Position numbers and translations under genes: made by a program. From Thermoproteota archaeon (lineage in GTDB: Archaea; Thermoproteota; Thermoprotei_A; EX4484-217-1; JAPDJV01), in contig JAPDJV010000001.1 in NCBI GenBank assembly GCA_029258925.1, positions 9,885 through 73,884 on the forward strand: a stretch of 64,000 nucleotides of DNA, in the 5' to 3' direction. How positions within the stretch are numbered: position 1 is the stretch's first letter; each line of letters starts with the position of its first letter. The notes below the pieces were generated by a model. That model saw only the letters and a program-made list of their open reading frames with translations. It did no database searches and was not told where the DNA came from. Positions 25,403 to 64,000 of this stretch are shown here, in pieces.

Positions 25403-25406
25403 TAAC

Positions 25407-32748: not shown

Positions 32749-33680
32749 CTCTCGATTCTAACTCCTGAAACTAGTCTTCCCCCAAAAAACAGTGATATAA
32801 GTGCTCCCATAACTATTAGAGCTATGCCAAAGTCTGTGGGGAAAGCTGAACTAAATGAGGCCAATAATACTCCTCCAAGGGCGCCCATAAGATAACCTGT
32901 TCTTCTCAGGAGAGTGACGGGTTCTGTTGCAACAGTTCTTCTTGCATCCCAGCCCGAGAAAACCATTCTGAAGATAGCTTTCCTACACTTATAGTATACT
33001 GTCCATATGGGTACGAGTATTAACTTGAGGTTTTCAGGGTCACTTGGATCGCAGTAGTAGAAGTCTATTCCATCAGAAATACTCTCATAATGTCTTCTCA
33101 CACTATCACAGGCTTCATCCCTGATCTTGGTTGATGCATCAACTCTATCCATTTCCGTATTTAATATAGGCAGCTTTATCTTCCCCCATTCCTCTTCGCC
33201 TAGATCCACTAGTTTTTCTTGAGGCGGTGTATCTACTCCTATTTTTTCAATAACGTTTCTAACTCCAAACTCCACTACTTGCCTTCTTGCTGGAAGCCTG
33301 ACTAGGACACTCTTATCGAAACGATCTCTATAGGTTCTTTTAACTCTTCTTTTATCCCTAATTTCATACTTATGATATTCGACCATACCCTTAACTCTAA
33401 CATTGCCCACCCATACTGGAACATATTCTCCCTCTACGTCGTAAACCTCTATTTCCCCCTTCATCTTCCTTAGATCAAAATCCCTTTCCACAGCCTTCCA
33501 GAATGAGCTGATTATAGACTCTCTGTCAGTAGATTTAATTAAGTATATGTCATCTATGGACACGACGCCACTAATTACATTGGGATATCCGCAGTAATCA
33601 CATATGGCTATAATAGTTTCCGGAGTGGCTGGTAGTGGTGCACCACACCTACCACACTTGAATTCTTGGCTCGCGGCCAA
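32745..33680 (-). CDS. zinc-ribbon membrane protein, paralog 1
   Basis: 311 aa; CGRCG..CDYCG ribbon, two C-terminal TM helices; 4-nt overlap with downstream paralog. Confidence 0.4.
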   Translation of the reverse strand: MAASQEFKCGRCGAPLPATPETIIAICDYCGYPNVISGVVSIDDIYLIKSTDRESIISSFWKAVERDFDLRKMKGEIEVYDVEGEYVPVWVGNVRVKGMVEYHKYEIRDKRRVKRTYRDRFDKSVLVRLPARRQVVEFGVRNVIEKIGVDTPPQEKLVDLGEEEWGKIKLPILNTEMDRVDASTKIRDEACDSVRRHYESISDGIDFYYCDPSDPENLKLILVPIWTVYYKCRKAIFRMVFSGWDARRTVATEPVTLLRRTGYLMGALGGVLLASFSSAFPTDFGIALIVMGALISLFFGGRLVSGVRIER

Positions 33681-46997: not shown

Positions 46998-48004
46998 ACA
47001 GCTCTTGCTTCACTCGATACGTCTATTTCCCCGATTCTATGGCATGCAACAACGTGTCCTCCTCCTATATCCACCAAGCTGGGCTCTTTCCTAGAACATT
47101 TTTCGATGGCATAAGGACATCTTGGATGAAACCTGCATCCTTTCGGAATATTTATTGGACTTGAGGGCTCTCCTCTAATAATCATTTTCTTGAGAGACTT
47201 TCTCCTGGGATCCGGTATGGGGGCAGCGGATAAGAGTGTAGCTGTATAAGGATGCTTCATATTCTTGAACAACTCGTCTGTTTCAGCTATTTCAACTATT
47301 TTACCTAAGTACATTACTCCAATTTTATCACTCATGTGCCTTATTGTAAGTAGGTCGTGGCTTATAAAGAGGTAGGTTAAACCCATATCTTTTTGCAAAT
47401 CTAGTAGGAGGTTCAGTATTTGAGCTCTTACGGAAACATCTAGAGAAGACGTGGGCTCGTCTAGAATTATTAGGTCGGGCCTCAATATTATAGCTCTAGC
47501 TATTGCAACTCTCTGCTGCTGTCCCCCGCTAAGCTGGTGAGGATATCTGTGGACGTGTTCTACTCCTAGCCCCACTTTTCTTAATGTTTCTATAATCAAT
47601 TCGTCTGCCTTTTCTCCTGAAGCTATTTTATGTATTTTAAGCGGTCTAAGCAAGTGTTGTCTGACAGTCATTCTAGGATTTAGAGAAGAGTAGGGGTCTT
47701 GAAAAACCACGCTGACTCTGCGCCTGAACTCCTTCATTTTTCTTCTGGGAATTTCAGTGATATCCATACCGTCGAAGAAGACTTTGCCTGATGTAGGCTT
47801 GTATAGCATAAGTATTGTTAGACCTACTGTGGTTTTGCCGGAACCGGATTCGCCAACTAGACCAAAAGTTTCCCCTCTATTGATACTGAATGAAACCCCG
47901 TCGACAGCTTTCACAACGATCTTCTTCCTGAATAAAATGCCCCTGCTGTGGACAAAGTACTTCTTTAAATTTACTACCTCAAGTAACGGGTTCAAAGGAT
48001 TCAC
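46961..48004 (-). CDS. peptide ABC transporter ATP-binding protein (OppF/DppF-like)
   Basis: [24 protein letters not shown]-terminal oligopeptide-transporter extension with Cys residues. Confidence 0.8.
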
Positions 48005-48972
48005 CTACTATACATGTGGCATGCAACAATATGTCCTCCCAAATCTATAGTCTCAGGAGGCTTCTCTCTACAAATGTCCATGGCGTACTTGCATCTTGGA
48101 TGGAATTTGCAACCCCTGGGAGGGTTTATGGGGCTTGGAAGTACCCCCGGTATGTGCTCCAACTTTTTCTTCCTCTCAGGCTTCAAAGGCAGACAAGCTA
48201 TCAACCCCTTAGTGTACGGATGGAGAGGGTTCTCGAAAACCTCCTCTACCTCACCCATTTCGACAATGTTGCCGAGGTACATTACTCCAACTCTATCGCT
48301 CATCTCAGCTACAACGCCGAAATCATGGGTTATCATGAGCATCGATGTTTTATAGTCCTTCTTCAACTCCATTAGTAAGTCGAGTATTTGGGCCTGAATT
48401 GTGACATCTAATGCTGTAGTCGGCTCATCGGCTATCAGCAGCTTTGGTCTACACGAGATCATCATTGCTATGAGTGCTCTCTGCCTCATGCCACCGCTGA
48501 ACTGATGAGGATAATATCTTGCCCTAATATCGGGGTCAGGAATCTTGACTCTTCTAATCAATTTGATAGCCTTCGATATAGCACTCTTCTTATCTTCTCC
48601 GAAATGAGCCATTAAGGGTTCTCCTATCTGAAATCCCACTGTTAAAATGGGGTTGAGAGACGTCATTGGGTTTTGAAATATCATTGCAATTTCTTTACCC
48701 CTAATCTTCCTCATATCGGCTTCATTAAGTTCCAATAGATTTCTTCCCTCAAACATCACTTTACCAGACACTATTTTCCCTGGAGGCCCAATCAGCCTTA
48801 GAATGCTTAGAGCAGTAACGCTCTTGCCACACCCGGTTTCTCCAACTAGGGAGAATACTTCGTCTCTCATAATGTTAAAGCTGACTCCATCTACGGCCTT
48901 AACAACTCCTCTGCTAAGGTAAAAGTATGTTCTAAGATTTTCCACAGATAGCAGAGGCTCCATTTTCGACAC
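48001..48972 (-). CDS. peptide ABC transporter ATP-binding protein (OppD/DppD-like)
   Basis: [25 protein letters not shown]; overlaps neighbours by 4 nt. Confidence 0.8.
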
Positions 48973-49875
48973 CTAGATCTTCAGTTTAGGATCAAGCATG
49001 TCTCTGAGGCCGTCTCCAAGCAGGTTGAATCCTAGGGCTGTTATGACAATGAATATTCCTGGGAAAGTCGTTATCCAAGGTGCATAAATCATTTTGTCTC
49101 TTCCCTCAGCAAGCATTGCACCCCAATCCGGCGTTGGAGGCTGAGCCCCAAATCCTAGGAAGCTCAGAGCAGTTGTCGACAGTATGGCGCTTGGAATAGT
49201 TAGAGTCGCTAAAACAATTATTGGAGACAGCACGTTCGGCAGTATGTACCTAACTATAATATTGAAGTTGTTTTCGCCTATTGCCCTAGCAGCTAGTATG
49301 AACTCTCTGTTAACGAGGGATTGAACCTTCGCTCTAGTGATTCTGGTGAAAGGAGGCCAGCTTACTATAGCAATTGCGGCTACAACGTTTAGTAGACCGG
49401 GGCCAATAATTATCACTATCCCCAAAGCTAATACTAATGGTGGAAGTGCCCAGATGATGTCTGTTATAGCTGAGATCACTTTATCAGCTATTCCACCGTA
49501 GTAACCGGCTATCAGCCCCAATACAACACCTATCGATGCCTCGATTAACATCACTATTAGGCCGACCATTAAAGCTATTCTCGATCCATAAATCACTCTA
49601 CTAAAAATACATCTTCCGAGGTCGTCGGTTCCAAAAGGATACTCTGAGCTAGGTGGCTTCAACCTATCTGCCACATTGGTTTCATCATATCTCCTTAAAG
49701 CTATGAGCGGAGCCGCGATTGCTATAATAGTCACTGCGCACACTATGAAGAAGCCTATTAGCGCCATTTTATAATAGAACATCATTCTTAGACCTTCTAT
49801 AATTCTTCTAGCATTCAACAAAACGTTATCCATAATACCAATCTTAGACTTATACATCTCACCCGGCCTCCTCAA
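48973..49875 (-). CDS. peptide ABC transporter permease (OppC/DppC-like)
   Basis: 300 aa, six TM, EAA-like loop. Confidence 0.75.
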   Translation of the reverse strand: MRRPGEMYKSKIGIMDNVLLNARRIIEGLRMMFYYKMALIGFFIVCAVTIIAIAAPLIALRRYDETNVADRLKPPSSEYPFGTDDLGRCIFSRVIYGSRIALMVGLIVMLIEASIGVVLGLIAGYYGGIADKVISAITDIIWALPPLVLALGIVIIIGPGLLNVVAAIAIVSWPPFTRITRAKVQSLVNREFILAARAIGENNFNIIVRYILPNVLSPIIVLATLTIPSAILSTTALSFLGFGAQPPTPDWGAMLAEGRDKMIYAPWITTFPGIFIVITALGFNLLGDGLRDMLDPKLKI

Positions 49876-50797
49876 GCCTTATTCTAGGGTCGAGTATGGC
49901 TGAGACTATATCGCCTAGAATGTTCGATATGACTGTTAGTATAGCTATGATTAATATGATTGCTTGAACCACGGGATAGTCTTGTCTAACAATGCTCTTG
50001 TAGAGCAGCCTACCCATTCCAGGCCAGGCGAAAACCGTTTCTATCACAACAGCTCCACCTATAAGCCAGGGTAGTTGTAGGAAAAACATTACTATTACGG
50101 GTATCAAGGCATTTTTGAATGCATGTCTAAATATGACTGTTCTAGAAGGAAGACCTTTAGCCCAAGCAGTTCTAACGTAGTCCTCAGTTAACACCTCAAG
50201 CATTTCAGATCTTATCAACCTAGCAATCATGGCTATTGAGGGTAAAGCTAGAGTCAGTGCGGGTAATATCAGGGATTCTGGCCCACTATAACCTGATAAT
50301 GGAAGCCACTTCAAGTACAATCCGAATAGGAGCATTAGCATTAATCCAAGCCAGAAACCTGGCATGGAGTAGAAGAATATTGCAAAACCCATTGCAAGGT
50401 AATCAATCCAACTTCCCCTCTTTAAAGCTGCAACCACGCCTATCGGTATTCCAATAATGTAAGCTATGATCAAAGATGTTAAAGTTAACTCTATTGTAAA
50501 TGGAAGTCTAGAGAATATTAGATCGCTAACAGGCTGTCTATGAATAATTGATGTCCCGAAGTCTCCTTGAATAAAGTGGCTTAACCAATAAAAATATTGA
50601 ATGTAGATGGGTTTATTTAGACCCCATGCCTCCCTCAGCTCCTCTATCCTGGACGGATCAACTCTTTCTCCGACAATAAGTACTATTGGGTCTCCTGGGA
50701 TCATGTGCATTATTGAAAAAAGGATTATTGATACTCCTAGTATCGCTGGTATTCCCAAGAATATCTTCTTAACAGCATATTTCAGCATTCCAGCCAA
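49859..50797 (-). CDS. peptide ABC transporter permease (OppB/DppB-like)
   Basis: 312 aa, six TM, conserved permease loop. Confidence 0.75.
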   Translation of the reverse strand: MAGMLKYAVKKIFLGIPAILGVSIILFSIMHMIPGDPIVLIVGERVDPSRIEELREAWGLNKPIYIQYFYWLSHFIQGDFGTSIIHRQPVSDLIFSRLPFTIELTLTSLIIAYIIGIPIGVVAALKRGSWIDYLAMGFAIFFYSMPGFWLGLMLMLLFGLYLKWLPLSGYSGPESLILPALTLALPSIAMIARLIRSEMLEVLTEDYVRTAWAKGLPSRTVIFRHAFKNALIPVIVMFFLQLPWLIGGAVVIETVFAWPGMGRLLYKSIVRQDYPVVQAIILIIAILTVISNILGDIVSAILDPRIRLEEAG

Positions 50798-50826
50798 AGC
50801 CGCTTAATCCCTCCCACGCTAGTGGC

Positions 50827-52458
50827 CTATGACTCTCCTATAATTATTTTGACATCATTTATCACGATACTCCCGTAGGGTGGGAGAACTATCAATCCCA
50901 CCACGTTCTTTCTTACAGCAGTGTACTCCTTGTTCACGAAGAGGGGTATCATCGGTAGATCTTCTAGTAGTATGCTTTGAATCCTGCTATACACTTTCGT
51001 CCTCTCAACAGGATCCATAACAGTCCTACCTTCTTCGAGCAACTGGTCGACTGTTGGATTGGCATACGTGTAGTTCGCTATAGTGCCGTGGACCAAGTAA
51101 ATCAGTATATCTGGGTCTGCCCAAGACCATGCTCTCAAAGCTAAGTCGAAATCCCACTCCCTAGTCTTCTGTCTAACATAGGAGTACTCAAACTCCCTAA
51201 CATTAACCTTAATACCTATTTGCTTAAGTTGGTCTTGTATTAGTGGGCCAACTCTCTTGAGCTGTGGCCTGTCTACTGGGACAAGCAATGTTAACTCTAG
51301 TGGTGCACCGTCCTTATCTACATATCCATCGCCATCGGTGTCCGTCCACCCTGCACTGGCCAGTAGGGACTTGGCTTCATCGATGTTCGTGCTGTAAGTG
51401 TTTTTCGCTATCTCCTCGATAGTCTCGTTATAGCACATCATGGATGGAGATATGAAGCAGTACCATGGTATTGAAGTGTTCTCCAATACTTGAACAAGGC
51501 TGTCCCTATCAACAGCTAAAGCTATAGCCTTCCTAACTCTCACATCGTCTAGAGGGGGCTTCCTCACGTTCACCATGATGTAGTCTATTCCTGGTTGAAG
51601 AGTGTAGTAGAGCTTTATGTCTGGGTTCTGCATTAGCCTGCTGACAGCGTCTACAGGCACTCCCCTCACGATATCAACATTCCCAGCCTCTAACTCGCTT
51701 ATTCTCGTTAAGTCTTCAGGTATGAACCTTATTATGACCTCGTCGATGTACGGGTTGGGCCCCTTATTCTCCACGAATGGCAGATTTGTCTTGTACTTGT
51801 CGTTCCTCACTAACACTATGTGTGAGCCGTGGACCCACTCCTTCAGCTTGTAAGGCCCACTCCCAATAGCCTCCACGTTAAACTGCTCGTTACCCATAGA
51901 CCTAGCTGAGACAACGTCGACAGGAGCTCCGTAAACAGTTATTAGAACAGCCCATAAATATGCTGGTGGCTCCTCGCACACTAGTTTGACAGTGTAGTCG
52001 TCTATTATTTCTATTGATGATACTACTGCGAAGTCCTCGGCGTAGGGACTTATCTGCCTATATCTTTCAATAGAGTCCTTTATTACTTGGGCTGTTATGG
52101 GGTTTCCGCTGGAGAATTGAGCGTCTTGTGGCAAGTGGAATATTATCGATTTACCGTTATCCGTTACTTCCCATGAAACAGCCAGGTCGCATACCATGTT
52201 CATGTTTTCGTCGAATACTACTAGGGGCTGATATATTAGGTCGTGGATTTCGTTTGCCCATGAAACTTGTTGGATGTCTAGTCCTTCAGGTTCTTCTGGG
52301 ATAGCTATTACTAGAGTCTTCTTATATTGTATTTGTGGGGTTGGAGATGGCATTAGATGTGGATATATGAAGAATATTATTGGAACAGCTATGGCAACTA
52401 TAATAACTACTGCAATTAATGCATGAATTTTACTAATTGCCCTCCTCGAATAACTCAA
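50827..52458 (-). CDS. extracellular solute-binding protein, family 5 (peptide/nickel SBP) with N-terminal membrane anchor
   Basis: 543 aa; N-terminal TM helix, size and layout of OppA/DppA SBPs. Confidence 0.7.
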   Translation of the reverse strand: MSYSRRAISKIHALIAVVIIVAIAVPIIFFIYPHLMPSPTPQIQYKKTLVIAIPEEPEGLDIQQVSWANEIHDLIYQPLVVFDENMNMVCDLAVSWEVTDNGKSIIFHLPQDAQFSSGNPITAQVIKDSIERYRQISPYAEDFAVVSSIEIIDDYTVKLVCEEPPAYLWAVLITVYGAPVDVVSARSMGNEQFNVEAIGSGPYKLKEWVHGSHIVLVRNDKYKTNLPFVENKGPNPYIDEVIIRFIPEDLTRISELEAGNVDIVRGVPVDAVSRLMQNPDIKLYYTLQPGIDYIMVNVRKPPLDDVRVRKAIALAVDRDSLVQVLENTSIPWYCFISPSMMCYNETIEEIAKNTYSTNIDEAKSLLASAGWTDTDGDGYVDKDGAPLELTLLVPVDRPQLKRVGPLIQDQLKQIGIKVNVREFEYSYVRQKTREWDFDLALRAWSWADPDILIYLVHGTIANYTYANPTVDQLLEEGRTVMDPVERTKVYSRIQSILLEDLPMIPLFVNKEYTAVRKNVVGLIVLPPYGSIVINDVKIIIGES

Positions 52459-52609: not shown

Positions 52610-53863
52610 TTAAATACAGTTCAATTCGTCCTCTGAGAATACTATGTTTCCTTTAACGATAGTTAAACTAGGCTTACCCTTAAGTCTTAATCCTTTAAAT
52701 GGAGAGTACTTCGCTTTGGATTTGAATTCAGCCGGGTTTATCGTGAACTCCTCTCCAATGTTGATTATTGTGAGAGATGCAGGTGAACCTGGAGTAATAC
52801 TACCATACCCTTTAAGTCCTAGGATTTCGGCTGGTCCCCTACTAGTTAAGTTAACGAATTCTTTAATCGATATAACCCCGTATTCGACAAATGTCCACAT
52901 TAACGGTATTAAAGTTTCTAGACCCGGAATACCCGGCGGACACTTATTAAATTCTAACGATTTCTCATCTACGCTGTGGGGAGTGTGGTTGCTTGTTATT
53001 GCATCAATCCATCCCTCAATTAAGGCTTCAACCAGTCCTTCAACTATATCCTCGGGTCTTAGGGGTGGATCTACTTTAGCTAAACACTTCATAGATTTCT
53101 CGTGGTCACAGTCGAGGAGTAAGTAGTGGGGTGAAGTATCTACGGTTGCACCACCTATTTTAGCTAACAGTACTCCGCTTCTACAAGTCATGTGAGTAAA
53201 GTGGACTCTTACTCCAGTGTCCTCAGTTATCTCTAAAACTCTCTTAATGTACTCTCTTTCAACCTTAATACTTCTATCAATCCACCTAAATCCTGCCTCG
53301 CAGCGTTCCTCAGAACTTCTCATTTGAGCACTGTTGAAGACTATGATCTTCCCCGTTGAAGCAACTATTTTAGCGATGTTTGAAATCATGTCGATGTTCT
53401 CTAGGTCCTCTGGGATTACCTCGAATCCCAGTACTCTGCAGTGTTTTGCAAGCATCCATGCCTCCTCGACGCTGTCAGGTACTCCAGCGTAACAATAATA
53501 TTCCGGAGCGTTTTCCCTAACATAAGACTTCAATTTCTCCTCTAACACTGAAACAGATTTTACTTGGGGAAGAGTATTCGGGGAATCCACTACTACAACG
53601 ATCCCCCCAGACCCCGCTGCGCTTAGACCCGATTCCCCATCCTCCTTATACGAATATTTCAACCCCATTAAATGAGCGTGTATGTCGATTACTCCAGGTA
53701 TCAGAACATACTTGTTCTCCTCGGTGAAATCTAGTTCAACTTGTCCTTGAACGCTGTGAAGAGGACCATAAACACCAGTTATAATACCGTTGCTGATAGT
53801 GACTGTTGCTAAAACAGTCGTATTACCATGCACTATTTTACCTTTATAAACAATATCTTCCAT
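52610..53863 (-). CDS. dihydroorotase-like cyclic amidohydrolase, paralog of pyrC
   Basis: 417 aa; co-linear with pyrC at 22877..24130 (same length, shared IDIHAHL..SYKED..DSPNT blocks), ~40% identical by eye. Confidence 0.6.
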   Translation of the reverse strand: MEDIVYKGKIVHGNTTVLATVTISNGIITGVYGPLHSVQGQVELDFTEENKYVLIPGVIDIHAHLMGLKYSYKEDGESGLSAAGSGGIVVVVDSPNTLPQVKSVSVLEEKLKSYVRENAPEYYCYAGVPDSVEEAWMLAKHCRVLGFEVIPEDLENIDMISNIAKIVASTGKIIVFNSAQMRSSEERCEAGFRWIDRSIKVEREYIKRVLEITEDTGVRVHFTHMTCRSGVLLAKIGGATVDTSPHYLLLDCDHEKSMKCLAKVDPPLRPEDIVEGLVEALIEGWIDAITSNHTPHSVDEKSLEFNKCPPGIPGLETLIPLMWTFVEYGVISIKEFVNLTSRGPAEILGLKGYGSITPGSPASLTIINIGEEFTINPAEFKSKAKYSPFKGLRLKGKPSLTIVKGNIVFSEDELNCI

Positions 53864-55032: not shown

Positions 55033-56889
55033 TTAGCGAGATTGATGGATACGTCTTGGTTTAAATAAGAGTAAGAGTACTGGTACTGCCAGTAATAGAA
55101 ACCCTATTATCATTCTAACTACGTCTTCATTCAAACCCATTTTAGGCGATGTTGTTATCTCCACTTTCATGCTGCCTTTAGGCTCTACATGTACTATTCT
55201 CTCAGGGTATTCAGATAGGTAGGCTAGTACTATAATGCTTGTAGTTTCAACATTACATGTAGACCACGAAGTCCCCGCTGTCCAAGGACTTGGACTATAT
55301 TGTGTTCTAAAGCCTCCTGTAGCTGGATCCTGCATGAACGCTATCATCAGGCTAATGTTTTCTATTAGCTGGGAGTACTTTGATGAATATGCGTTGTCTA
55401 CTACACAGAGAGACCTCCATGAATAATATAGTAAAGCCAGCTTAAACGTATCATATGCTTGGTTAACGTAGAATGCTTTGTCTCTGAATCCCCGTCCATC
55501 GTATAAGCAGAGAAGTTTCTCCCATAATGTCTTCGCACTATCAACAGAGGAATCCATAAATTCCCTAAGAATTCTTAGGGCAACAAGGTCCGCGTAAGCA
55601 ACATAGTCTTTGAAGGGTTTCGAGAGATCACTATGATTTTCGAAGATAATGGTGTACCCGTCTATGGTCTCTAATATCTCATTTTCACCCATTAAAGGAG
55701 TATTCCCCCGCCAATGAGGCTTCACTCCTAGAAGTACCTCGTGGTGATTGTTATATCCGTTAGCATATTTAGCGGAGAGCAAACCAGTGATTCTGTCCCC
55801 TAGCTCCGAGCCTAATACTTCAAGTGCTCTAGAAGCAAGCAGGTTGTCTGCTGCAATATATATCCTCGACCTTCCCGATTTGTCATCGGACTCGTAGAGT
55901 AAACCAATATTGTCAACATAGTGTGATTCAAGATATTTCCTAGCCATATCCCAGTCGGCCACCCAACTCGACAATACTGCTCCTCCCTTCAGCCTCCTGA
56001 TGAAAGCCCACGTGACTCTTAGAAGATAATATGGGTCACACTTATTGTAGTAATCGTAGTGCGGCTCGATCATAGTCCTCTCATGGTATTCGTTCCACGA
56101 AGTTATTGCAACAATTTTAATATTGTTCACCATATGAACAACGTTCATCCACTCTCTAACATACACTCCGAGAGTTAAGTCGGGGTCGACCCTCCTAGAA
56201 GCATTCCTCCCACTAGCCCCCGCCAAAGCCAGGAAGTATTCGTCGTATCTGGGTGCAACACTGACATAGCCGTCGACACATATCTTATTGGAGAAATCCA
56301 CGTAACTCCATTCTCTCCCAACAACTCTAATATTAAATCTTGCATCAACTACTCTGCCGATAATATTTGAAGCTTCAACCCATATTAGTAAGAGAGGTTT
56401 GCCTTCGAATATGTAGTAGGAGTGATTATAGTTTTCGACATAATTATTCCAAATATAATTAAGCACATAGCTAACATTAAATTTCTCTACCGCTCCCCTC
56501 TCTACCATCAATGCCGCCTTCAATCCATATTCTTCTAATAGGTTGAATAGTGTCCTACTGGCATTATCCTCATAGCTCCAAGGACCCCACCAGCTGACAA
56601 AGAGTACATCTATACCTATTCTCTTCATGATCTCCAGTTGCCACCTGACTACAGTTTCATTCATTGAAGAATAATATCCCTTGAGAGGTTTGTCTACAAC
56701 AACTGTATCATTATCCCCATTCCAATGGCGGTTACCTAGCCCTCCACCATACCACGGATAATAGTATACTGCAACTACGGGCTTTGAGAAACTTTTCATG
56801 TCTGGAACTATGTTAAATTCTACAGCTTTAAGCACCACTGGAACTATTAAGAGTGCGAGCAATATTATTGCGCAAGTAAATGCTCTCAT
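55033..56889 (-). CDS. secreted, C-terminally anchored glycoside-hydrolase-like protein, N-terminal GH99 (endo-alpha-mannosidase)-like domain
   Basis: 618 aa; signal peptide, VYYYPWYGG..RHWNG and VLFVSWWGPW blocks parallel GH99 YYSWYGN..HWNH and LALSWY; many N-x-S/T sequons; C-terminal TM plus basic tail. Confidence 0.45.
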   Translation of the reverse strand: MRAFTCAIILLALLIVPVVLKAVEFNIVPDMKSFSKPVVAVYYYPWYGGGLGNRHWNGDNDTVVVDKPLKGYYSSMNETVVRWQLEIMKRIGIDVLFVSWWGPWSYEDNASRTLFNLLEEYGLKAALMVERGAVEKFNVSYVLNYIWNNYVENYNHSYYIFEGKPLLLIWVEASNIIGRVVDARFNIRVVGREWSYVDFSNKICVDGYVSVAPRYDEYFLALAGASGRNASRRVDPDLTLGVYVREWMNVVHMVNNIKIVAITSWNEYHERTMIEPHYDYYNKCDPYYLLRVTWAFIRRLKGGAVLSSWVADWDMARKYLESHYVDNIGLLYESDDKSGRSRIYIAADNLLASRALEVLGSELGDRITGLLSAKYANGYNNHHEVLLGVKPHWRGNTPLMGENEILETIDGYTIIFENHSDLSKPFKDYVAYADLVALRILREFMDSSVDSAKTLWEKLLCLYDGRGFRDKAFYVNQAYDTFKLALLYYSWRSLCVVDNAYSSKYSQLIENISLMIAFMQDPATGGFRTQYSPSPWTAGTSWSTCNVETTSIIVLAYLSEYPERIVHVEPKGSMKVEITTSPKMGLNEDVVRMIIGFLLLAVPVLLLLFKPRRIHQSR

Positions 56890-57137
56890 AGAGGTCGGAT
56901 ACTAGATATAAATCTATAAGTATATAGTTTTACCTTAGTTGGCTTCTAAGAGTTGTTCACAGAAAGCTGCATAAACAGCTTTGTTAAGTAATTTAGAAAG
57001 TTTAGATCACATGAAACTCGTGAGATTTCCTAATCCACGTTTCAGATTTGAAAAGCACGATAATGATAATATTTCATATTAAGTCAAGTATTTTGAGATT
57101 TATAAGTATCTTAGTTCAATATTATATAAGTGGTGAT

Positions 57138-57368
57138 AACATGCGTAGAGTTGCAGGTATATTGATAGCAGATAACATTATGGTGGAAGATACGGACACC
57201 ATTATAGTTATTCCAGGAGGAGTCAGGATCAGGGTTGAGGGATTGAAAATAGATGTCCCAGAGGAATGCAAGCCGCCTCTTCTAGTATCCATATTCGAAG
57301 ATGAAATTCAAATATCTAGAATTGCAGGTTCGTGTACCATTTATATTCCAATGGAGAAAACCGGATGA
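57138..57368 (+). CDS. small hypothetical protein
   Basis: Internal Met of ORF 57048..57368; no motif. Confidence 0.15.
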   Translation, partial: NMRRVAGILIADNIMVEDTDTIIVIPGGVRIRVEGLKIDVPEECKPPLLVSIFEDEIQISRIAGSCTIYIPMEKTG

Positions 57369-57411
57369 CTTTGTTCGATGGAAATGGGAATAATTGTTTT
57401 AGCAACGTGGT

Positions 57412-59859
57412 TCAAGGCAATATGCTGAACGTTATCTCCGGATGGTCTACAACCTCGTGTTCTCCCCTACCTTCATCCTCTACTATCAATTCTTTGATTC
57501 TTAAAGTTCCCTTAATATCCTCCAATCCCCTCTCAACAATCTCCTTTAGTGGACCAGCATATATCGTTACGCTGCTTATTGGAGCGCTGAGCGCGATCTT
57601 CATGTCATGCTTTACTCTCCTAATAGAGGCTATCACATCTATTATTAGTTCACCTGCTTTAGCCCTGTCTTTATTAGCTATTCTCATGGGTTCAGGCCAT
57701 TCAGCTATCGTTATGCTTTTCCATGGCTCATGTTTGGAGTAGAGTATGTGGTATATCTCCTCTGTTATGAAGGGTGCGAAAACCGAGAGCATTCTCAAGG
57801 TGTTTAGCAGGACATGGTATAACGTGAACTGTGCTCCTTCCCTGTACTCCCCGTCTTTCCCTGCAATCCTGTATTTCACTGCTTCCAAGTAGTGGTCGCA
57901 TAGTTTGTGCCAGAAGAAGTCTATTATTGTTGAGCCTGCTCTTTGGAAATCGAATTTTTCGAATGCATCCGTAATTGCTTCAATTGTCTCGTCTAGGAGG
58001 GATAGAATCCAATGGTCTACATCCCTTAACTCCACCTTAACGCTCTTTGAGGGAGTATAGTCTTCTAGAGCTATTGAAATTAGTCTTGCAGCATTCCACA
58101 CTTTCACCAGAAATCTCCAACAATAATCGACTAGTTGCCAGTTGAATCTAACGTCCTGGCCTGTTGCGGCAGATGTGGCAGCCCACAGTCTGAACGCGTC
58201 TGCGCCGTACTTGTCTAAAACCTCTGTTAGACTCACGTAGTTTCCATAACTCTTATGCATCATTCTGCCATCAGTTCCCCTGACCATGCCGTTTATCAAA
58301 GCGACTTTAAACTGTGGTTTCCCGAATAATGCTACACCTCTAACTATGAGATAGTAGTCCCAAGACCTTATTATGTCGTAACCGTTTGGCTGGAGGTCTG
58401 CTGGGAACAGCCTTTCATCGACGTTGTCTGGCCATCCAGCATGTACCGCTGCTGTAATACTGGAATCCATCCAAGTGTCCATTACGTCTGTTTCAGGATA
58501 TATTTCTCCGCCGCACTGAGGACATTTGTCTATTGGAGGCTTGTCTCTTCTAGGGTCTATTGGAAGCCAGCTTGGATCAGCAACTATGATGTGCCCGTTT
58601 TTACAGTACCATACTGGGAAGGGTGTGGCGAAGATTCTTTGCCTACTTATAGGCCAATCCCAGTCAACGCTTTCAACCCAGTCGAGTAATCTTTTCTTAG
58701 CGTACTCGGGCACCCATTTTATTTGGTCTGCTGCCTTCCTTATCTCCTCTCTTAGTTCAATAGTCTTCACGAACCATTGCTCCTTGGGTATTATTTCTAC
58801 AGGAGTGTGGCATCTCCAGCACGTACCAATATTACTCACTATGCCCTCCTCTTTCACGTATAGACCTTCTTCTCTTAACTTAAGGATTGTTTTCTCCCTA
58901 GCCTCCACTATAGTTAGACCCCTTAGATCCTCCAACGCGTTATCAGTCATTCTACCCTTCTCGTCTACACCCTTTATTATTGGGAGACCGTGTTTTTTCT
59001 GCCATCTTACGTCAGTTTTGTCGCCATAGGTGCAGACCATTACGACTCCTGTGCCAAACTCCGGATCAACGTCTCTATCACCAATTATCGGTATCACTCT
59101 ATTATATAATGGTACAATGGCTTTCTTCCCTATCAGGTTCTTATACCGGTTGTCCTCTGGATGCACGAGAAGTGAGACACATGATACTAGAAGTTCCGGT
59201 CTAGTTGAAGCAACAGTGATCTCCCCTCCCTCCTCAAGTTTAAACTTGAAATAAACTAGGTGTCTTCTCTCAGCTCTATACTCGACTTCTGCTTCGGCTA
59301 AAGCTGTTTCACATCTTGGACACCAGTGTACTGGGTGAACTCCCCTATAAGCCAGACCCTTTCTGTACATTTCTATGAAGCTTAGCTGTGTTCTCCTCCA
59401 GTAATCTGGGTTCATCGTCTCGTATTCCGAGGTCCAGTCAATACTACATCCAAGCCTCCTAATAGCCTCCTTCATCGGCTTAATCCAGTTCTTGGTGAAT
59501 TCAACACATAGCTTGTAGAAGTATTCCTTAGGTACTTCGCTCTTCGATTTTCCAATAGCTCTCTCCACCCTAACCTCCGTTGGAAGACCGTGGCAATCCC
59601 ATCCTTGGGGGAAGAGAACGTTGTATCCTCTCATTCTCTTATATCTTGCAACGAAGTCTATGTAAGAGTGGTTTAAGGCGTTTCCTACATGAAATTCTCC
59701 GCTAGGGTAGGGGGGTGGCGTGTTTATGCAATATGTTGGTTTATCTCTGTCTTCTCTGTCAAATCTATAAACTCCCCACTCCTCCCATTTTTTTAACCAC
59801 TTTTCCTCTATTGCTCTAAAATCAAATCTTTTAGGCATTTTCATGGACAATTCGACCAC
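57412..59859 (-). CDS. class Ia aminoacyl-tRNA synthetase of the Val/Ile/Leu family, most likely valyl-tRNA synthetase; atypical HVGN and MMHKS signature motifs
   Basis: 815 aa; TPPPYPSGEFHVGN (HIGH region), ARYKRMRGYNVLFPQGWDCHGLPTE, CP1 GTGVVMV, Zn knuckle CPQCG, DVMDTWMDSS..GWP, GRMMHKSYGN..YGADAFRLW (KMSKS region). Confidence 0.6.
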   Translation of the reverse strand: MVELSMKMPKRFDFRAIEEKWLKKWEEWGVYRFDREDRDKPTYCINTPPPYPSGEFHVGNALNHSYIDFVARYKRMRGYNVLFPQGWDCHGLPTEVRVERAIGKSKSEVPKEYFYKLCVEFTKNWIKPMKEAIRRLGCSIDWTSEYETMNPDYWRRTQLSFIEMYRKGLAYRGVHPVHWCPRCETALAEAEVEYRAERRHLVYFKFKLEEGGEITVASTRPELLVSCVSLLVHPEDNRYKNLIGKKAIVPLYNRVIPIIGDRDVDPEFGTGVVMVCTYGDKTDVRWQKKHGLPIIKGVDEKGRMTDNALEDLRGLTIVEAREKTILKLREEGLYVKEEGIVSNIGTCWRCHTPVEIIPKEQWFVKTIELREEIRKAADQIKWVPEYAKKRLLDWVESVDWDWPISRQRIFATPFPVWYCKNGHIIVADPSWLPIDPRRDKPPIDKCPQCGGEIYPETDVMDTWMDSSITAAVHAGWPDNVDERLFPADLQPNGYDIIRSWDYYLIVRGVALFGKPQFKVALINGMVRGTDGRMMHKSYGNYVSLTEVLDKYGADAFRLWAATSAATGQDVRFNWQLVDYCWRFLVKVWNAARLISIALEDYTPSKSVKVELRDVDHWILSLLDETIEAITDAFEKFDFQRAGSTIIDFFWHKLCDHYLEAVKYRIAGKDGEYREGAQFTLYHVLLNTLRMLSVFAPFITEEIYHILYSKHEPWKSITIAEWPEPMRIANKDRAKAGELIIDVIASIRRVKHDMKIALSAPISSVTIYAGPLKEIVERGLEDIKGTLRIKELIVEDEGRGEHEVVDHPEITFSILP

Positions 59860-60010
59860 TCTTCTTAGCAGTACTTAAGGTCTTTGATTGAATCTGGCCT
59901 ATAGAAATATTTCTCTGAAACATTAATAAATGTAAGTTGCTCATTACTACTTTAAAGCAAAAGGTTACGAATTCAAGTCCTGCATAGTATTTGAAGAGGG
60001 GCCTGGAAAA

Positions 60011-60826
60011 TTGGAGTTTACTGGACTAATTATCGGTATTGTAATGTTGACTATAGGTGTGATGTGCTTAGGGGGATTTCCGAGGAGCCCCAGGTTCTGG
60101 ATTAAAATGAGGGTGGGGAAAGGGATACTAGTGGATGATGCATGGAAAAAAGCGAACACTATAATTGGAGCACACATCTTCTTTACTGGAATTCTTCTCG
60201 CCACATTATCCATTTACATTGAGGATCCCATGATGTCGTTAATAACCTCCTTTTTCTGCGTACCAGTATCATTAATAGCCTCGATCATCCACGCCTCAAG
60301 GATATCCGAGGAGAAAGCATTAAAGAAAAAGAAGGTGACTGGGCCCAGAATCCCTAGGCCGTCGAGAGAATTGTCAAGAAAGTTCTTCACCGTCTTCACA
60401 GTCTTAAGTATAGTTTTTGTTATCCTCTCAGCTTACTTATCATCGTACAGTAGCGTAGGAGTCCCAATGTCTTTTGACGTAGAGGGTAGGCCGATACAGC
60501 TATTAGATAACTGGGACTATTTTACTAGAAGCGTATTGGTAGGGTTTGTACTATACTTCACGGGCCTCATCTTACTGATATTCTTGAGTAAACCTGTTAG
60601 GATTACGGGAGATGAGAGAACTAGATTGGGGAGGAGAATAATATTAAATTTCGTAGTACTCATGGATTCTTCAGTTCTCGCTTCCATAATGGTTTCCCAA
60701 GTAAATACGATATGCTACTACCATTATGGTAGTCCGCTACTTACGGGAACATTATTTGATGTAGCGAGGTTTTCTGTAATATTGCTTCCAACCATATGGT
60801 TCTTGAAGAACCTATTATTCTCCTAA
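60011..60826 (+). CDS. integral membrane protein, uncharacterised
   Basis: 271 aa, 6-7 hydrophobic segments. Confidence 0.35.
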   Translation: MEFTGLIIGIVMLTIGVMCLGGFPRSPRFWIKMRVGKGILVDDAWKKANTIIGAHIFFTGILLATLSIYIEDPMMSLITSFFCVPVSLIASIIHASRISEEKALKKKKVTGPRIPRPSRELSRKFFTVFTVLSIVFVILSAYLSSYSSVGVPMSFDVEGRPIQLLDNWDYFTRSVLVGFVLYFTGLILLIFLSKPVRITGDERTRLGRRIILNFVVLMDSSVLASIMVSQVNTICYYHYGSPLLTGTLFDVARFSVILLPTIWFLKNLLFS

Positions 60827-60913
60827 CAAACATTCGAGAATCGTAATACCGCCGTGTTTATACTAGAAGTTTTTCTTAAAAAATAAATTAAATTTAGGTT
60901 ATTGTCTGTTTAT

Positions 60914-63900
60914 CTATTTCCTCCTCATAATAAACGTCAATACTGCTGCTCCAACCACTAGGCCTATTACAGCTCCTACTGCTCCACCCATCGTGGTACC
61001 TGATTGCCTTGCCTGATCTGCCTGGTGGGAGTTGTAAGCGTTGATTATGCTCACTGGACTGCTTTCACCAGTGTTCCCTGCAGCATCTGTAACTACGAGC
61101 TTGAAGGTGTATGTGCCGTCACCCATTTTAGTGAAGTCTACCGTCATGTGATCTACATTCGATACATCTATTTCCGTGACGTCTCCTGAGGGCAGCGTCA
61201 TTATGAGGCGTGCTTTAACTACGTCAGTAGACCAGGTGAAGTTTAGTGTAGCTGGAGCAGTAACTTCCTGTCCAGCTACAGCACACTCTATTGAAGCTGT
61301 TGGAGCAGTATTGTCTGAAGTAAACGATAATTCTCTTCTAACAACGTTCCCTGCTTCATCGATGACCCTAATAGCCAGCGTGTGGTTTCCATCGCTCAAA
61401 CCTGTAGTATCTATTGTGAGCACCTTCTCATCGTAGAGTCCTGTGAGATTCCAAGTGGCAAGCAAGCTTCCATCTATGTATGCTTCCATAGATTTCAGTT
61501 CTATGTTGTCACTTGCCTGGAGCGTGAAGGTTATTGAGCCTGCAATGGGTTTATCCAGCCTGGCTGGAACTATGGTGATTGAAGGCCTTGACTTGTCGGT
61601 TACGAACGTGGCCGATGATATGGTCCTTAAACCTACCAAATCTGATGCTTCTACTTCAACTACGTGGCTTCCATCATCTAGGTCTGCTACAACAACAGTT
61701 ATAGTAGTACTGTATACAGTTACGTTCTCCTCGAAGGCGACGTTTAATACTTCTCTACCGTCCACTCTAACCACAACATGAGCTAGTCCAACGTTGTCTG
61801 ATGCAACAATTTCCATGTTAAACGTGTTGTTTTGTACTCCAGATGGCACTATTGCTGTCGCGGAGGGCGCGGTTCTGTCCACTATTACTTGAACAACAGC
61901 ATCCGAGCTGTGTCCAACCACGTCGAATACCATAGCCCTTATTTCGTAAGCTCCTTCACCTAGAGCTGTAACGTTGACATTTAAGTCTGCTACAAAACTT
62001 GCCTGCTCAGATATCTCCCATTCTCCTATAATCTCTCCGTTCAGGAGGACTGTGACATGTAATATTCCAATGCTATCCGATGCCTCGATCCTAACAGGTA
62101 TGTTGTTTAATGCATACTCTGTGGCAGCCTCTAAGTCCACTGTTGGAGGCGTGTTATCTGACACAAAGCTCACACTAGCGTTTTCAACGTTCCCAGCTAA
62201 ATCGAATACTTTGAATATGACAACGTGGTCTCCGTCTGGAATACTGGATGTATCAACTATTAAAAAGTCCTCGTACTCCGTTAGATCGGTGATGTTGAAC
62301 ACTGCTATAAGATAGTCTTCGCTATCTAAGTAGGCTTCTACCCTCATTAATCCAATGCTATCGTATACGTTGAACGATATGTTTATGCTATTTGAAACGT
62401 AGTACTCACCTAGCCATGGAAGCACTGTTGGACTAGAGTAGTCAACTATGAACGTTCCAGTCCAAGTATTAACGAGGCCTGCTGCATCCCATGCTATAAT
62501 AGTTATGTTGTGCTGTCCCTCCCATAGATCTGTTACATTAATTACTATGGTGTCTGCGACCTCCGTAGCAGCGGGTATGTAGTACTTTACTAGTATGCCA
62601 TCTAGATAAACATCGACCTCAGACAACATCGCGTCTGACGTGTATATTGATATGTTGAAGTTGCTGTTATAGTAGCCCTCAGTTACCGGAGCCTCCTCCA
62701 TTTCGATGTTGAGGCATGGAGGTGTTCTGTCGAGCGTAAACGTTGTATTGTACCAGGTATATCTTCCAACCTGGTCGAATCCCTTAATCGAGATTTCATG
62801 TTTGCCCTCGTCCAGTCCAGTAGTATTGACGTAGAAGACGAATGCTCCATATTTCATAGCATTGGCTACAAGGTAATATTCTGTGGTTGCATCTCCACTA
62901 TAATAGTCCACTACTATATAATATGTTCCAGTGTAGGTGGCAACGAAGTCAACTTCCTCGTATGTTGTCGTGCCTACGGAATATCCTATGACGTTGAAGT
63001 CTTCATCTAAAACGTATAGGTCTAGGTCTACTGTTGGATCATCCCATTCCAGGACGACTGAAGTGGTCTCGCCTATCATTAAGCTCATAGAATACATCTT
63101 GTACACATCCTTTGGGCTGATAGTATCGTAAACTTCTACGGGAGTCCTGATCGAAACCGGCATCGTGGTGTTCACTAGCTGATTGTCTATGTAGAGCTCT
63201 ACTTCCCATGGCTGCGCATCGATTATTTCACCTGTGATCTCGAAGTCTCCTGAAGTGACCTCAGGTATTCCATAGACCTCTATTTCTGGAGGCTTCGTGT
63301 CCAGTATTATAGTGTCGGAAATGCTTTCCACGTAATTACCAATGTAGTCGTTGCACTGAGATGATACAACCAGTTTTCCATCTGGAATGATGTCCCAGGC
63401 CCCGTCGAGCACTACCACATTGAATACAATTCTGAGCAATCCGTCTCCCACAATACTGTATGTTGCCTCTACCTCCACTTGCTCTTCGATTCCAGGTACG
63501 TTAGGCGTTATCTGGCTTTCAACGTTCACCACTGTGCCTCCAGACTCTATGTAAGAATCTAAGTCTAATTCCCAGGATATGGTGAAGATGTCGCGTGATT
63601 CGCCGTATATGTCTTCGAGTTCGGATAACACTATCGTCCCACTAATTGGCGTGTAGTCTTCTACTACAACGGCGAAAGTTGCATTTCCTCCTGTCCAAAT
63701 GTTGCTGTCGATTGTACATTGTGTTTTAGGCGGAGACCTGTCGACTATGAAGTATACTTCACGAGAGGTTTCTGCGAATGCTGTTTCAACGTCCAGTTTA
63801 ATTGATCTGAAGCCCTCGGCTAATGATAGCGTGTTCATCTCTGCTATTATGTACCCTATTACATTGTTTATTGGAATTATGAAGACCTCTGCTTCGACTC

Positions 63901-64000
63901 CTACATCAGTTACTGCCTTAATACTCGAAATTCCTTCAGGCGCAATGTATATCCAGGTAAACGACGCCTCGTAGCTGTCGGCTGAAGCTATCTTAGTTGC
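60914..64000 (-). CDS. large cell-surface (glyco)protein with more than 8 tandem Ig-like/Big-like repeat domains and C-terminal TM anchor; 5' end lies beyond window
   Basis: Reading frame stays open from 63838 to the window edge (I translated it); recurring ~95-aa units marked by ASD(N/S)(I/V)G-type motifs; dense N-x-S/T sequons; C-terminal GGAVGAVIGLVVGAAVLTFIMRRK anchor. Confidence 0.5.
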   Translation of the reverse strand, partial: ATKIASADSYEASFTWIYIAPEGISSIKAVTDVGVEAEVFIIPINNVIGYIIAEMNTLSLAEGFRSIKLDVETAFAETSREVYFIVDRSPPKTQCTIDSNIWTGGNATFAVVVEDYTPISGTIVLSELEDIYGESRDIFTISWELDLDSYIESGGTVVNVESQITPNVPGIEEQVEVEATYSIVGDGLLRIVFNVVVLDGAWDIIPDGKLVVSSQCNDYIGNYVESISDTIILDTKPPEIEVYGIPEVTSGDFEITGEIIDAQPWEVELYIDNQLVNTTMPVSIRTPVEVYDTISPKDVYKMYSMSLMIGETTSVVLEWDDPTVDLDLYVLDEDFNVIGYSVGTTTYEEVDFVATYTGTYYIVVDYYSGDATTEYYLVANAMKYGAFVFYVNTTGLDEGKHEISIKGFDQVGRYTWYNTTFTLDRTPPCLNIEMEEAPVTEGYYNSNFNISIYTSDAMLSEVDVYLDGILVKYYIPAATEVADTIVINVTDLWEGQHNITIIAWDAAGLVNTWTGTFIVDYSSPTVLPWLGEYYVSNSINISFNVYDSIGLMRVEAYLDSEDYLIAVFNITDLTEYEDFLIVDTSSIPDGDHVVIFKVFDLAGNVENASVSFVSDNTPPTVDLEAATEYALNNIPVRIEASDSIGILHVTVLLNGEIIGEWEISEQASFVADLNVNVTALGEGAYEIRAMVFDVVGHSSDAVVQVIVDRTAPSATAIVPSGVQNNTFNMEIVASDNVGLAHVVVRVDGREVLNVAFEENVTVYSTTITVVVADLDDGSHVVEVEASDLVGLRTISSATFVTDKSRPSITIVPARLDKPIAGSITFTLQASDNIELKSMEAYIDGSLLATWNLTGLYDEKVLTIDTTGLSDGNHTLAIRVIDEAGNVVRRELSFTSDNTAPTASIECAVAGQEVTAPATLNFTWSTDVVKARLIMTLPSGDVTEIDVSNVDHMTVDFTKMGDGTYTFKLVVTDAAGNTGESSPVSIINAYNSHQADQARQSGTTMGGAVGAVIGLVVGAAVLTFIMRRK

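Follow-up and report, generated by a model that had tools for sequence, protein, structure and literature searches.

A stretch of 64,000 nucleotides from a Thermoproteota archaeon (the window) encodes a 618-aa protein in which a divergent domain of glycoside hydrolase family 99 (GH99) is joined to a second, (alpha/alpha)6-like module between a predicted signal segment and a predicted membrane anchor. That this protein is a surface-anchored two-module ecto-enzyme acting on the glycans of its own envelope is a reading whose chances we put at about even. The large protein encoded nearby, taken for a possible S-layer-associated adhesin in a first-pass annotation, is instead, by its sequence, a cell-anchored pyrolysin-like S8 protease. 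Features are listed in Table 1; the extent first given for the 618-aa reading frame was borne out by the ORF list.

Table 1. Features of the GH99-like gene, the neighbouring subtilase gene and the region between them (window positions).
Feature	Position	Strand	Basis
Bimodular membrane-anchored GH99-like protein (predicted), 618 aa, whole ORF	55033..56889	(-)	ORF list
Signal-peptide-like hydrophobic segment, N-terminal, aa 1-29	56803..56889	(-)	Kyte-Doolittle scan
GH99-family (beta/alpha)8 domain, aa 36-302	55984..56784	(-)	PF16317, family profile, AF2, Foldseek
S99-W100-W101; W101 aligns with BxGH99 W126	56587..56595	(-)	Alignments
E267-Y-H-E270, counterpart of GH99 catalytic EW[H/G]E (BxGH99 E333/E336, MANEA E404/E407)	56080..56091	(-)	Alignments
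(alpha/alpha)6-barrel-like domain, aa ~307-567, archaeal family without Pfam model	55189..55971	(-)	
Predicted C-terminal transmembrane anchor, aa 586-612, then basic tail	55054..55134	(-)	Hydrophobicity scan and sequence
Valyl-tRNA synthetase (valS), intervening, outside the feature	57412..59859	(-)	NCBIfam PRK13208, 986 bits
271-aa multi-pass membrane ORF of no known family, intervening	60011..60826	(+)	Called as gene in L060, L061
C-terminal 1028 aa of 2235-aa membrane-anchored pyrolysin-like subtilase; S8 domain past window end	60914..64000	(-)	L060
Six complete and one partial Ig-like repeat, ~93-96 aa each (full-length aa 1570-2184)	61070..62914	(-)	Iterated HMM
C-terminal transmembrane anchor of subtilase, GGAVGAVIGLVVGAAVLTFIM-RRK	60929..60991	(-)	Sequence

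Module 1 had been proposed to be a GH99 domain, and profile and structure comparisons upheld this. Pfam PF16317 matched the 618-aa protein at 39.7 bits (gathering cut-off 33), the single sequence aligning only to profile positions 51-161, and matched 27 of 28 family members (best E 1.4e-25); the domain boundaries were taken from the domain HMM. Comparison with BtGH99 by phmmer gave E 2.3e-8, and the family profile covered the whole barrel of BtGH99, BxGH99 and MANEA (E 2.5e-27, 1e-21 and 1.7e-17, respectively). When the PDB was searched with this profile, GH99 chains were the only matches, again over the full barrel (E 2.5e-27 to 9e-17). The GH99 domain of the AF2 model had pLDDT mostly >90, and in a Foldseek search of the PDB GH99 structures took ranks 1-36 (E ~1e-12, target-normalised TM 0.52-0.61), ahead of GH71. 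Only 17-20% identity is shared with characterised GH99 enzymes, and by profile and model module 1 is a compact, divergent member of the family. The view of GH99 as a eukaryote/Bacteroides-type family did not hold: the GH99-like clade is carried by 55 archaeal species genomes (motif scan of species-representative genomes), and archaeal GH99 genes have been surveyed by Sobala 2023 (PMC11025385). At E<=1e-10 the GH99-like family comprises 293 clusters at 50% identity.

The sequence blocks on which the family had first been recognised were located at residues 42-48 (YYYPWYG), 54-57 (RHWN) and 99-101 (SWW), together with SWNEYHERTMIEP at 264-276; the blocks EYHE, SWW, YYxWYG, RHW, GYYSS and GKPL align with BxGH99. 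E267-Y-H-E270 was aligned to NEWHE by both phmmer and the family profile, the catalytic motif EW[H/G]E being defined as in PMC11025385. The 28 family members all share E270, H269, N266 and W265, and >=90% of them have E267 and E130; in the homologue P0015 the first catalytic Glu is replaced by Q. The -2 subsite aromatic is W101, which aligns with the W126 of BxGH99 that favours mannose (PMC7703563), as opposed to the glucose-associated Y189 of MANEA, and the subfamily fused to PIG-V has F or T at this position. The H[I/L]EPY motif (MANEA 222-226; BxGH99 154-158) reads M128-V-E130-R-G in the 618-aa protein, with Glu alone kept; the clade consensus is (I/M)VEP, His being missing throughout, and the motif has also been lost in some eukaryotic clades (Sobala 2023, PMC11025385). 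BxGH99 Y252 (MANEA Y323) lies in a segment that the archaeal profile scores as inserted, with a conserved W194 nearby, and because this segment is unaligned the +1 and -1 subsites may differ from those of characterised GH99 enzymes.

The first-pass description of the protein was incomplete, in that half of it is a second, different domain. In the AF2 model of the whole protein the C-terminal half had pLDDT <50, and the same module modelled alone with a deeper alignment reached pLDDT 92, with a predicted (alpha/alpha)-barrel fold as in the 'six-hairpin' glycosidase superfamily (e.g. MmpH, GH15, GH125, GH76). No Pfam or NCBIfam match was found for module 2, and 107 of its 108 homologues likewise have no Pfam domain; a profile search of the PDB gave no match and Foldseek no significant one (E all >=0.037). 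Four carboxylates are invariant (D348, E417, D470 and E548) and fit a second glycosidase or a glycan-binding site. Stand-alone module 2 occurs in Thermococcales, where the GH99 motif scan of species-representative genomes gave no locus; module 2 therefore has a function of its own, and its gene context in Pyrococcus abyssi was uninformative. GH99 precedes module 2 in the fusions at loci L001, L030, L036 and L040 and follows it at L005, L026, L032, L055 and L018 (partial), and the two are encoded by adjacent genes at L003, L008, L016, L028 and L050.

The signal peptide and C-terminal anchor reported earlier were both recovered as predicted hydrophobic segments. The AF2 model has a helix at aa 2-26, within the signal-like segment, and most members of both module families carry hydrophobic segments at both ends. 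The 618-aa protein has 1.29 sequons per 100 aa (window median 0.26). The intact ORF is present at 99% identity in two further assemblies, L056 and L057. In one Logan assembly the ORF is broken into 59 + 562 aa; a pseudogene reading was rejected because the break is due to a single 1-bp indel and the gene is intact in three other sequences, including the window.

The neighbouring product had been described as longer than 1000 aa with a C-terminal transmembrane segment, and at least 1028 aa and that segment are indeed visible before the ORF leaves the window. Its full-length sequence was read from assembly L060, whose 9.1-kb overlap with the window shows 99.98% identity. The S8 domain was detected by PF00082 (E 2.2e-23) and by a PDB match to KP-43 protease (1wmd, E 8.7e-20), and the triad and oxyanion motifs are DTGVD (from 217), HGTGCAG (from 453), GNGGP (from 617) and GGTSQATP (from 711), placing the catalytic positions at D217, H453, N617 and S714. 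The adhesin label had missed this subtilase identity and is corrected here to pyrolysin-like protease. Repeat detection by iterated HMM (per-repeat E 1e-28 to 1e-35; Pfam Big_13, Big_7, Big_3_3) lowered the count of Ig-like repeats from the more than eight of ~95 aa claimed to the number in Table 1. The dozens of N-x-S/T sequons claimed are reached over the full length only (38; expectation 14.8, z 6.7), the window part holding 16 (shuffle expectation 8.5, z 2.85). Sequon density in the 618-aa protein and the subtilase is ~5-6 times the window median, and from this richness both are probably extracellular N-glycoproteins. When the 2235-aa sequence was searched against 5.8 billion proteins, three weak matches and no close homologue were returned, making the protein in effect an orphan apart from its S8 and Ig parts.

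Gene neighbourhoods were compared at 55 genome loci by ORF calling, all-against-all BLASTP and clustering. No conserved partner gene was found in these GH99-like loci; recurring neighbours were confined to ABC ATPases, GT4 glycosyltransferases (the commonest specific neighbour, 7/55 loci), transketolase (5 loci) and a pilin-like ORF (4 loci). A PIG-V-type GT-C mannosyltransferase (PF04188) is fused to 4 of 28 homologues, and at the Bathyarchaeia locus L062 such a fusion lies among GT4, GT2, GT87, DUF2079 and GT2+GtrA_DPMS genes, the last resembling polyprenol-P-mannose synthase. No glycosylation genes were found among the 47 window ORFs scanned.

From the fold, motifs, topology signals and module coupling described above, we infer an activity, a substrate and a biological role as follows. 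An N-terminal signal sequence would export the 618-aa protein, and the C-terminal anchor would tether it to the outer face of the membrane. By homology, module 1 would be endo-acting on alpha-mannosides and recognise a Man-alpha-1,3-Man-type unit, using the GH99 neighbouring-group mechanism, in which E267 would serve as base, E270 would serve as acid and a 1,2-anhydro-sugar would be formed; W101 suggests mannose rather than glucose in the -2 subsite. Module 2 would supply a second glycosidase or a glycan-binding site. Since many archaea have the two modules either fused, in one order or the other, or encoded adjacently, both would act on one mannose-containing substrate. The likeliest candidates are the cell's own envelope glycans beneath the S-layer, whether the N-glycans of exported proteins or mannans in lipid-linked or polymeric form. 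An own-glycan substrate is favoured by the PIG-V fusions, the L062 cluster, the GT4 neighbours and the lack of a conserved catabolic or transporter context.

A different use of the same chemistry would be nutrient scavenging, in which the enzyme strips or fragments mannans from outside the cell or the glycans on detrital glycoproteins, together with the giant extracellular protease and the adjacent oligopeptide ABC transporter. Characterised bacterial GH99s degrade mannan (PMC11025385). The W126-type Trp is kept here, and genes for peptide use abound in the window, which encodes, besides the S8 protease, peptidases of the M28, M55 and M20 types and, at 46961-52458, an Opp-type substrate-binding protein with permeases and ATPases. 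Mannan degradation in Bacteroides reportedly (Cuskin 2015) involves GH99 and (alpha/alpha)6 mannanases that parallel the module pair, which counts for scavenging as well. Against this, no conserved sugar transporter, mannose-catabolism gene or other catabolic GH was found at the 55 loci, and both the C-terminal transmembrane anchoring and the fusion of homologues to biosynthetic GT-C enzymes speak for the organism's own envelope, so that we regard scavenging as somewhat unlikely. The PIG-V fusions and the L062 cluster, with its Dol-P-Man-synthase-like GT2, GT87, DUF2079 and GT4 genes, could also be taken to indicate a biosynthetic accessory, analogous to the glycosidases in bacterial exopolysaccharide operons: a hydrolase or transglycosylase setting the chain length or release of a surface mannan or lipoglycan built from polyprenol-P-mannose, not acting on N-glycans. 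That context, however, was seen in Bathyarchaeia and Nitrososphaerales subfamilies without module 2 and W101, and such genes are absent from the window and from the vicinity of the closest bimodular homologues (L063 and L064), which leaves an accessory role unlikely. Least probable of all is a non-catalytic lectin-like or pseudo-enzyme scaffold; the degenerate HxEPY motif (MVERG) and the Q of P0015 would suit it, whereas the invariant E270, H269, N266 and W265 and the near-constant E267 and E130 form a pattern typical of active enzymes.

The first-pass annotation had viewed the GH99-like gene and its large neighbour as a functional pair, with an N-glycan trimming enzyme dedicated to the adjacent giant surface glycoprotein as its specific client. 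The ~4 kb separation that it gave was measured as 4,024 bp (56889 to 60914), both products are predicted to be exported, membrane-anchored and sequon-rich, and at locus L063 a 4851-aa surface protein lies 4.4 kb from a GH99-like homologue. The two genes do not form one operon, however, because valS and an opposite-strand gene intervene. The valyl-tRNA synthetase on record is an 810-aa form with its start at 59844; the window enzyme is only 35% identical to that of L055. Across the 55 loci neither an Ig-repeat nor a subtilase giant recurred as a conserved neighbour, and co-occurrence was absent: the repeat HMM gave one weak match and no comparable neighbour, and Pfam scans of the eight largest neighbouring ORFs returned mostly helicases, restriction enzymes and a P-type ATPase. 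The giant protein is moreover without close homologues, whereas the GH99-like family is widespread. A dedicated pair is thus very unlikely, and the subtilase may be one of many glycoproteins met by the 618-aa enzyme.

Within the preferred reading of an ecto-enzyme acting on envelope glycans, N-glycan trimming may be what the 618-aa protein does. The fullest form of this idea, in which the GH99-like and (alpha/alpha)6 pair is a post-transfer processing system that trims mannose-rich, eukaryote-like (chitobiose-core) N-glycans of freshly exported proteins under the S-layer, is unlikely; if true, Golgi endomannosidase processing would have a prokaryotic equivalent that might also be related to it by descent. 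The words trimming, glycosidase and mannosidase are absent from a 2024 review of archaeal N-glycosylation. In the literature, archaeal N-glycosylation is described as assembly and transfer; no report of archaeal glycan trimming after transfer and no biochemical characterisation of an archaeal GH99 was found. The GH99-like family is a candidate for such glycan processing or for envelope-mannan remodelling, being widespread and apparently surface-anchored, with the GH99 catalytic residues kept and repeated coupling to a second glycosidase-like module; its coupling in other lineages to polyprenol-phosphate-mannose-type mannosyltransferases adds to this candidacy. Module 2 represents an (alpha/alpha)6 domain family that lacks annotation and has members in cultured hyperthermophiles (Staphylothermus, Pyrococcus, Thermococcus), which makes it testable.

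Several known systems bear comparison. Pyrolysin (Pyrococcus furiosus) and the STABLE protease (Staphylothermus marinus) are cell-envelope subtilases of hyperthermophilic archaea, and the 2235-aa protein resembles them in an S8 domain whose catalytic Asp and His are set far apart by a long insert (D217 to H453), and in a big C-terminal extension, envelope association and heavy glycosylation potential. Unlike them it contains a PPC-like domain and 6.5 Ig-like repeats and is held by a C-terminal transmembrane anchor of its own, and it is much longer. Module 2 has no detectable sequence similarity to MmpH (mycobacterial endo-alpha-1,4-(methyl)mannosidase, 7QSJ) or to clan GH-L-type (alpha/alpha)6 glycosidases and is shorter than MmpH (~260 aa versus 345 aa), and beyond these glycosidases the fold is also common to epimerases and terpene cyclases. 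The GH99-like::PIG-V fusions of Bathyarchaeia likewise belong to the GH99-like clade (27-38% identity) but carry a multi-pass GT-C mannosyltransferase where the 618-aa protein has module 2, and unlike it they are sited in glycosyltransferase clusters and have replaced W101; since this subfamily is without W101 and module 2, its context may not transfer to the 618-aa protein.

The Bacteroides GH99 endo-alpha-1,2-mannanases (BtGH99 4ACY, BxGH99 4AD1/5M03) share with the 618-aa protein the (beta/alpha)8 fold, the N-E-x-H-E motif with two catalytic Glu, the WW block with its mannose-type Trp and the YYxWYG, RHW, GxYSS and GKPL blocks. The archaeal barrel is shorter (~270 aa versus ~340 aa) through deletions that include the Y252 segment, it has MVERG in place of HLEPY, and, unlike the Bacteroides enzymes, the archaeal protein is predicted to be membrane-anchored, is fused to a second domain and is encoded outside a polysaccharide-utilisation locus. 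MANEA is like the 618-aa protein a GH99 member with the same catalytic motif, and it is membrane-tethered and faces a non-cytoplasmic compartment where N-glycoproteins mature, as predicted for the 618-aa protein. For glucose recognition MANEA has Tyr189 and a '-2 loop' (D[E/D]NGE), whereas the 618-aa protein has Trp and no such loop; MANEA is a single domain with an N-terminal anchor, and the archaeal protein has two modules and its predicted anchor at the C-terminus.

The 618-aa ORF read in the first-pass annotation as a GH99-like enzyme was confirmed, with the claimed signal peptide and C-terminal anchor represented by a signal-like hydrophobic segment (aa 1-29) and a TM segment (aa 586-612) followed by a basic tail. 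All of the GH99 blocks ascribed to it were found (YYYPWYG 42-48, RHWN 54-57, SWW 99-101), together with a further block, SWNEYHERTMIEP, at 264-276. The protein matched Pfam PF16317 at 39.7 bits (gathering score 33) in an alignment spanning only one third of the model, and BtGH99 was found by phmmer (E 2.3e-8). A family profile of the GH99 domain (module 1, aa 36-302) was built from the 28 archaeal proteins returned by the homologue search; against the PDB it matched GH99 chains only, with the whole barrel aligned (BtGH99, E 2.5e-27; BxGH99, 1e-21; MANEA, 1.7e-17). PF16317 matched 27 of the 28 homologues, the related WbsX model 11 and GH71 two. The AF2 model was confident over aa 35-300 and its Foldseek ranks 1-36 were GH99 structures (E ~1e-12), followed by GH71.

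The protein was also checked against the five GH99 motifs of Sobala 2023 (PMC11025385). The catalytic EW[H/G]E motif is kept as E267-Y-H-E270, and the -2 subsite residue is a Trp, W101, counterpart of BxGH99 W126, a position at which Trp marks the mannose-preferring state (PMC7703563). The H[I/L]EPY motif is shrunk to MVERG with the Glu alone kept, the Y323/Y252 segment lies where the archaeal clade has either a deletion or no alignment, and the eukaryote-specific -2 loop, likewise missing from bacteria, was not found in the protein. Based on the motif comparison and the GH99 matches, module 1 was therefore filed as a divergent, compact GH99-family member. It is probably competent for catalysis, with an uncertain specificity at the +1 subsite. 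A 1-bp indel in Logan contig SRR21024894_4857 breaks the gene into 59 + 562 aa, which could reflect misassembly or strain variation; the gene is unbroken in the window and in two JGI/ENA contigs (L056, L057).

Residues ~307-570, which the first-pass annotation did not describe, form a separate second domain (module 2) with no Pfam or NCBIfam match. The first homologue alignment showed this domain on either side of the GH99 domain, preceding it in some proteins and following it in others. A profile of the segment found 108 proteins, nearly all devoid of any Pfam domain and the majority stand-alone (~290-340 aa, carrying a signal and an anchor of their own); cultured carriers include Staphylothermus hellenicus, Pyrococcus abyssi, Pyrococcus sp. 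NA2 and Thermococcus profundus. Modelling with a deeper alignment (pLDDT 92, pTM 0.91) predicts an unannotated (alpha/alpha)6 family, for which no sequence-level link to solved structures was found. Invariant residues include D348, N349, E417, D470, Y479, K483, Y531, N546 and E548. Module 2 occurs alone in Thermococcales, and no Thermococcales locus was returned by the GH99 motif scan of species-representative genomes; it must therefore have a function of its own.

HMMs of both modules were run against the ORFs of related loci. Fusions in the order GH99-module 2 were found in the window and in L001, L030, L036 and L040, fusions in the reverse order in L005, L026, L032 and L055 (partial in L018), and separate adjacent genes in L003, L008, L016, L028 and L050, the fused or adjacent cases being distributed over several archaeal orders. 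Because independent fusions in both orders and adjacency of genes are classic evidence of shared function, modules 1 and 2 are taken to act in one process. The compact clade is widespread: exhaustive HMMER scanning gave 293 clusters at 50% identity (E<=1e-10), and the motif scan placed it in 55 species genomes, mainly of Desulfurococcales, Acidilobaceae, Pyrodictiaceae, Bathyarchaeia and Nitrososphaerales. The sole bacterial locus from that scan, in a Dehalococcoidia bacterium, carries GH99-like domains in five consecutive ORFs, including 808-aa and 754-aa proteins with two such domains apiece.

Coordinates of features in the window and in related loci
Feature	Sequence	Positions	Strand
SepCysS and SepRS-like genes, side by side	window	12551-15215	+
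Pyrimidine cluster	window	21958-26345	-
SPFH/band-7 protein	window	30298-31242	
Overlapping ORFs, 329 + 311 aa	window	31759-33680	-
Divided M20 peptidase	window	42616-43970	-
Second dihydroorotase-like gene	window	52610-53863	-
GH99-like protein	window	55033-56889	-
Multi-pass membrane ORF, 271 aa, between valS and protease gene	window	60011-60826	+
Giant neighbour (C-terminal part)	window	60914-64000	-
GH99-like ORF array	L044 (CBDBGS010000007.1)	6457-13663	
PIG-V fusion cluster	L062 (JAVZIM010000001.1)	2587-17526	
4851-aa surface protein	L063 (JBMXDY010000010.1)	15459-20055	

The window (G+C ~42%) is an archaeal chromosome segment with housekeeping genes for pyrimidine biosynthesis, Fe-S and tRNA-modification functions, a SepRS/SepCysS pair, peptidases and an oligopeptide ABC transporter; no glycosyltransferase or oligosaccharyltransferase was found among the 47 window ORFs scanned. 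The minus-strand order is protease, opposite-strand membrane ORF, valS, a 523-bp gap holding a small opposite-strand ORF, and the GH99-like gene. The membrane ORF has no Pfam or NCBIfam family and is conserved in same-species contigs only. The SepCysS gene (TIGR02539, 425 bits, cut-off 365) and SepRS-like gene (TIGR00470, 371 bits, slightly below the cut-off of 380.65) represent the tRNA-dependent cysteine pathway, and the host's GH99-like relatives are mostly Thermoproteota. An M20 peptidase seemingly divided over two consecutive ORFs (190 aa N-terminal, 246 aa C-terminal) may be a frameshift or pseudogene, and the overlapping ORF pair, without Pfam match, adjoins an SPFH/band-7 protein with a C-terminal zinc ribbon. 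The pyrimidine cluster comprises ATCase, a dihydroorotase-type amidohydrolase, a DHOD electron-transfer subunit and DHODH; a further dihydroorotase-like gene, which does not reach the cut-off (PRK00369, 296 bits against 310), lies 30 kb away, next to the Opp transporter.

The neighbour of more than 1000 aa noted ~4 kb from the enzyme is indeed present, 4,024 bp away, with 1028 aa visible before it runs off the window. Its complete gene (2235 aa) was read from Logan contig SRR21024894_4857, which differs from the window by one mismatch and one 1-bp indel in 9.1 kb (99.98% identity). The encoded protein combines a signal peptide with an S8 subtilase domain (PF00082, E 2e-23; KP-43 protease, E 9e-20) with motif residues D217, H453, N617 and S714. 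Its Asp-to-His insert is 236 residues; a long insert here is typical of pyrolysin-type enzymes. More beta-rich regions follow, then a PPC-like domain, the 6.5 Ig-like repeats and finally a TM anchor; outside these generic domains the protein is effectively an orphan. Where more than eight repeats had been claimed, an iterated HMM gave six complete and one partial, each of ~93-96 aa (per-repeat E 1e-28 to 1e-35). The dozens of sequons claimed hold for the full-length protein (38, against 14.8 +/- 3.5 expected; z 6.7) but not for its visible part (16, against a shuffle expectation of 8.5; z 2.85). Sequon density is 1.6-1.7 per 100 aa in the protease and 1.29 in the GH99-like protein, against a window-ORF median of 0.26, and by this measure both are plausibly N-glycoproteins.

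A functional pairing of enzyme and giant protein had been proposed. No comparable giant protein is conserved as neighbour in other loci, the sole other case being L063, where a 4851-aa surface protein lies 4.4 kb from a family member, so coincidence is the best reading of the pairing. The L063 protein, near bimodular homologue P0003, carries CARDB, Big_7 and faint alpha-2-macroglobulin MG domains.

As to substrate, which we infer throughout, the enzyme would act on the cell's own envelope glycans: a C-terminal TM tether is typical of both module families, the GH99-like domain is fused to a PIG-V-type GT-C mannosyltransferase in 4 of the 28 homologues, GT4 genes are the commonest specific neighbour across related loci, and no conserved catabolic context was found across them. 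One PIG-V fusion, in the Bathyarchaeia locus L062, lies amid GT4, GT2, GT2+GtrA_DPMS (polyprenol-phosphate-mannose-synthase type), GT87 and DUF2079 genes. These PIG-V/GT contexts, however, come from subfamilies without module 2 and without W101, and the window and the closest bimodular homologues (L063, L064) have housekeeping-gene surroundings. Scavenging, with the enzyme working alongside the window's protease, peptidases and Opp transporter, is a reasonable alternative. The dense L062 cluster, with three GT4 genes and one each of the other types, may be a locus for the extracytoplasmic assembly of mannan or glycan.

Archaeal GH99 genes were surveyed previously, 85% with the Trp state (PMC11025385), and the presence of one in an archaeon is therefore not new. 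We found no earlier description of the compact, membrane-anchored archaeal GH99-like clade, of its repeated association with an unannotated (alpha/alpha)6 family and elsewhere with GT-C mannosyltransferases, or of any tie between it and archaeal glycan processing; trimming, glycosidases and mannosidases all go unmentioned in a 2024 review of archaeal N-glycosylation. In module 2, an early and a late carboxylate may correspond to D47 and E262 of MmpH (PMC9883506), a positional analogy. Module 1, at ~270 aa against ~340 aa, shares 17-20% identity with the characterised GH99 enzymes.
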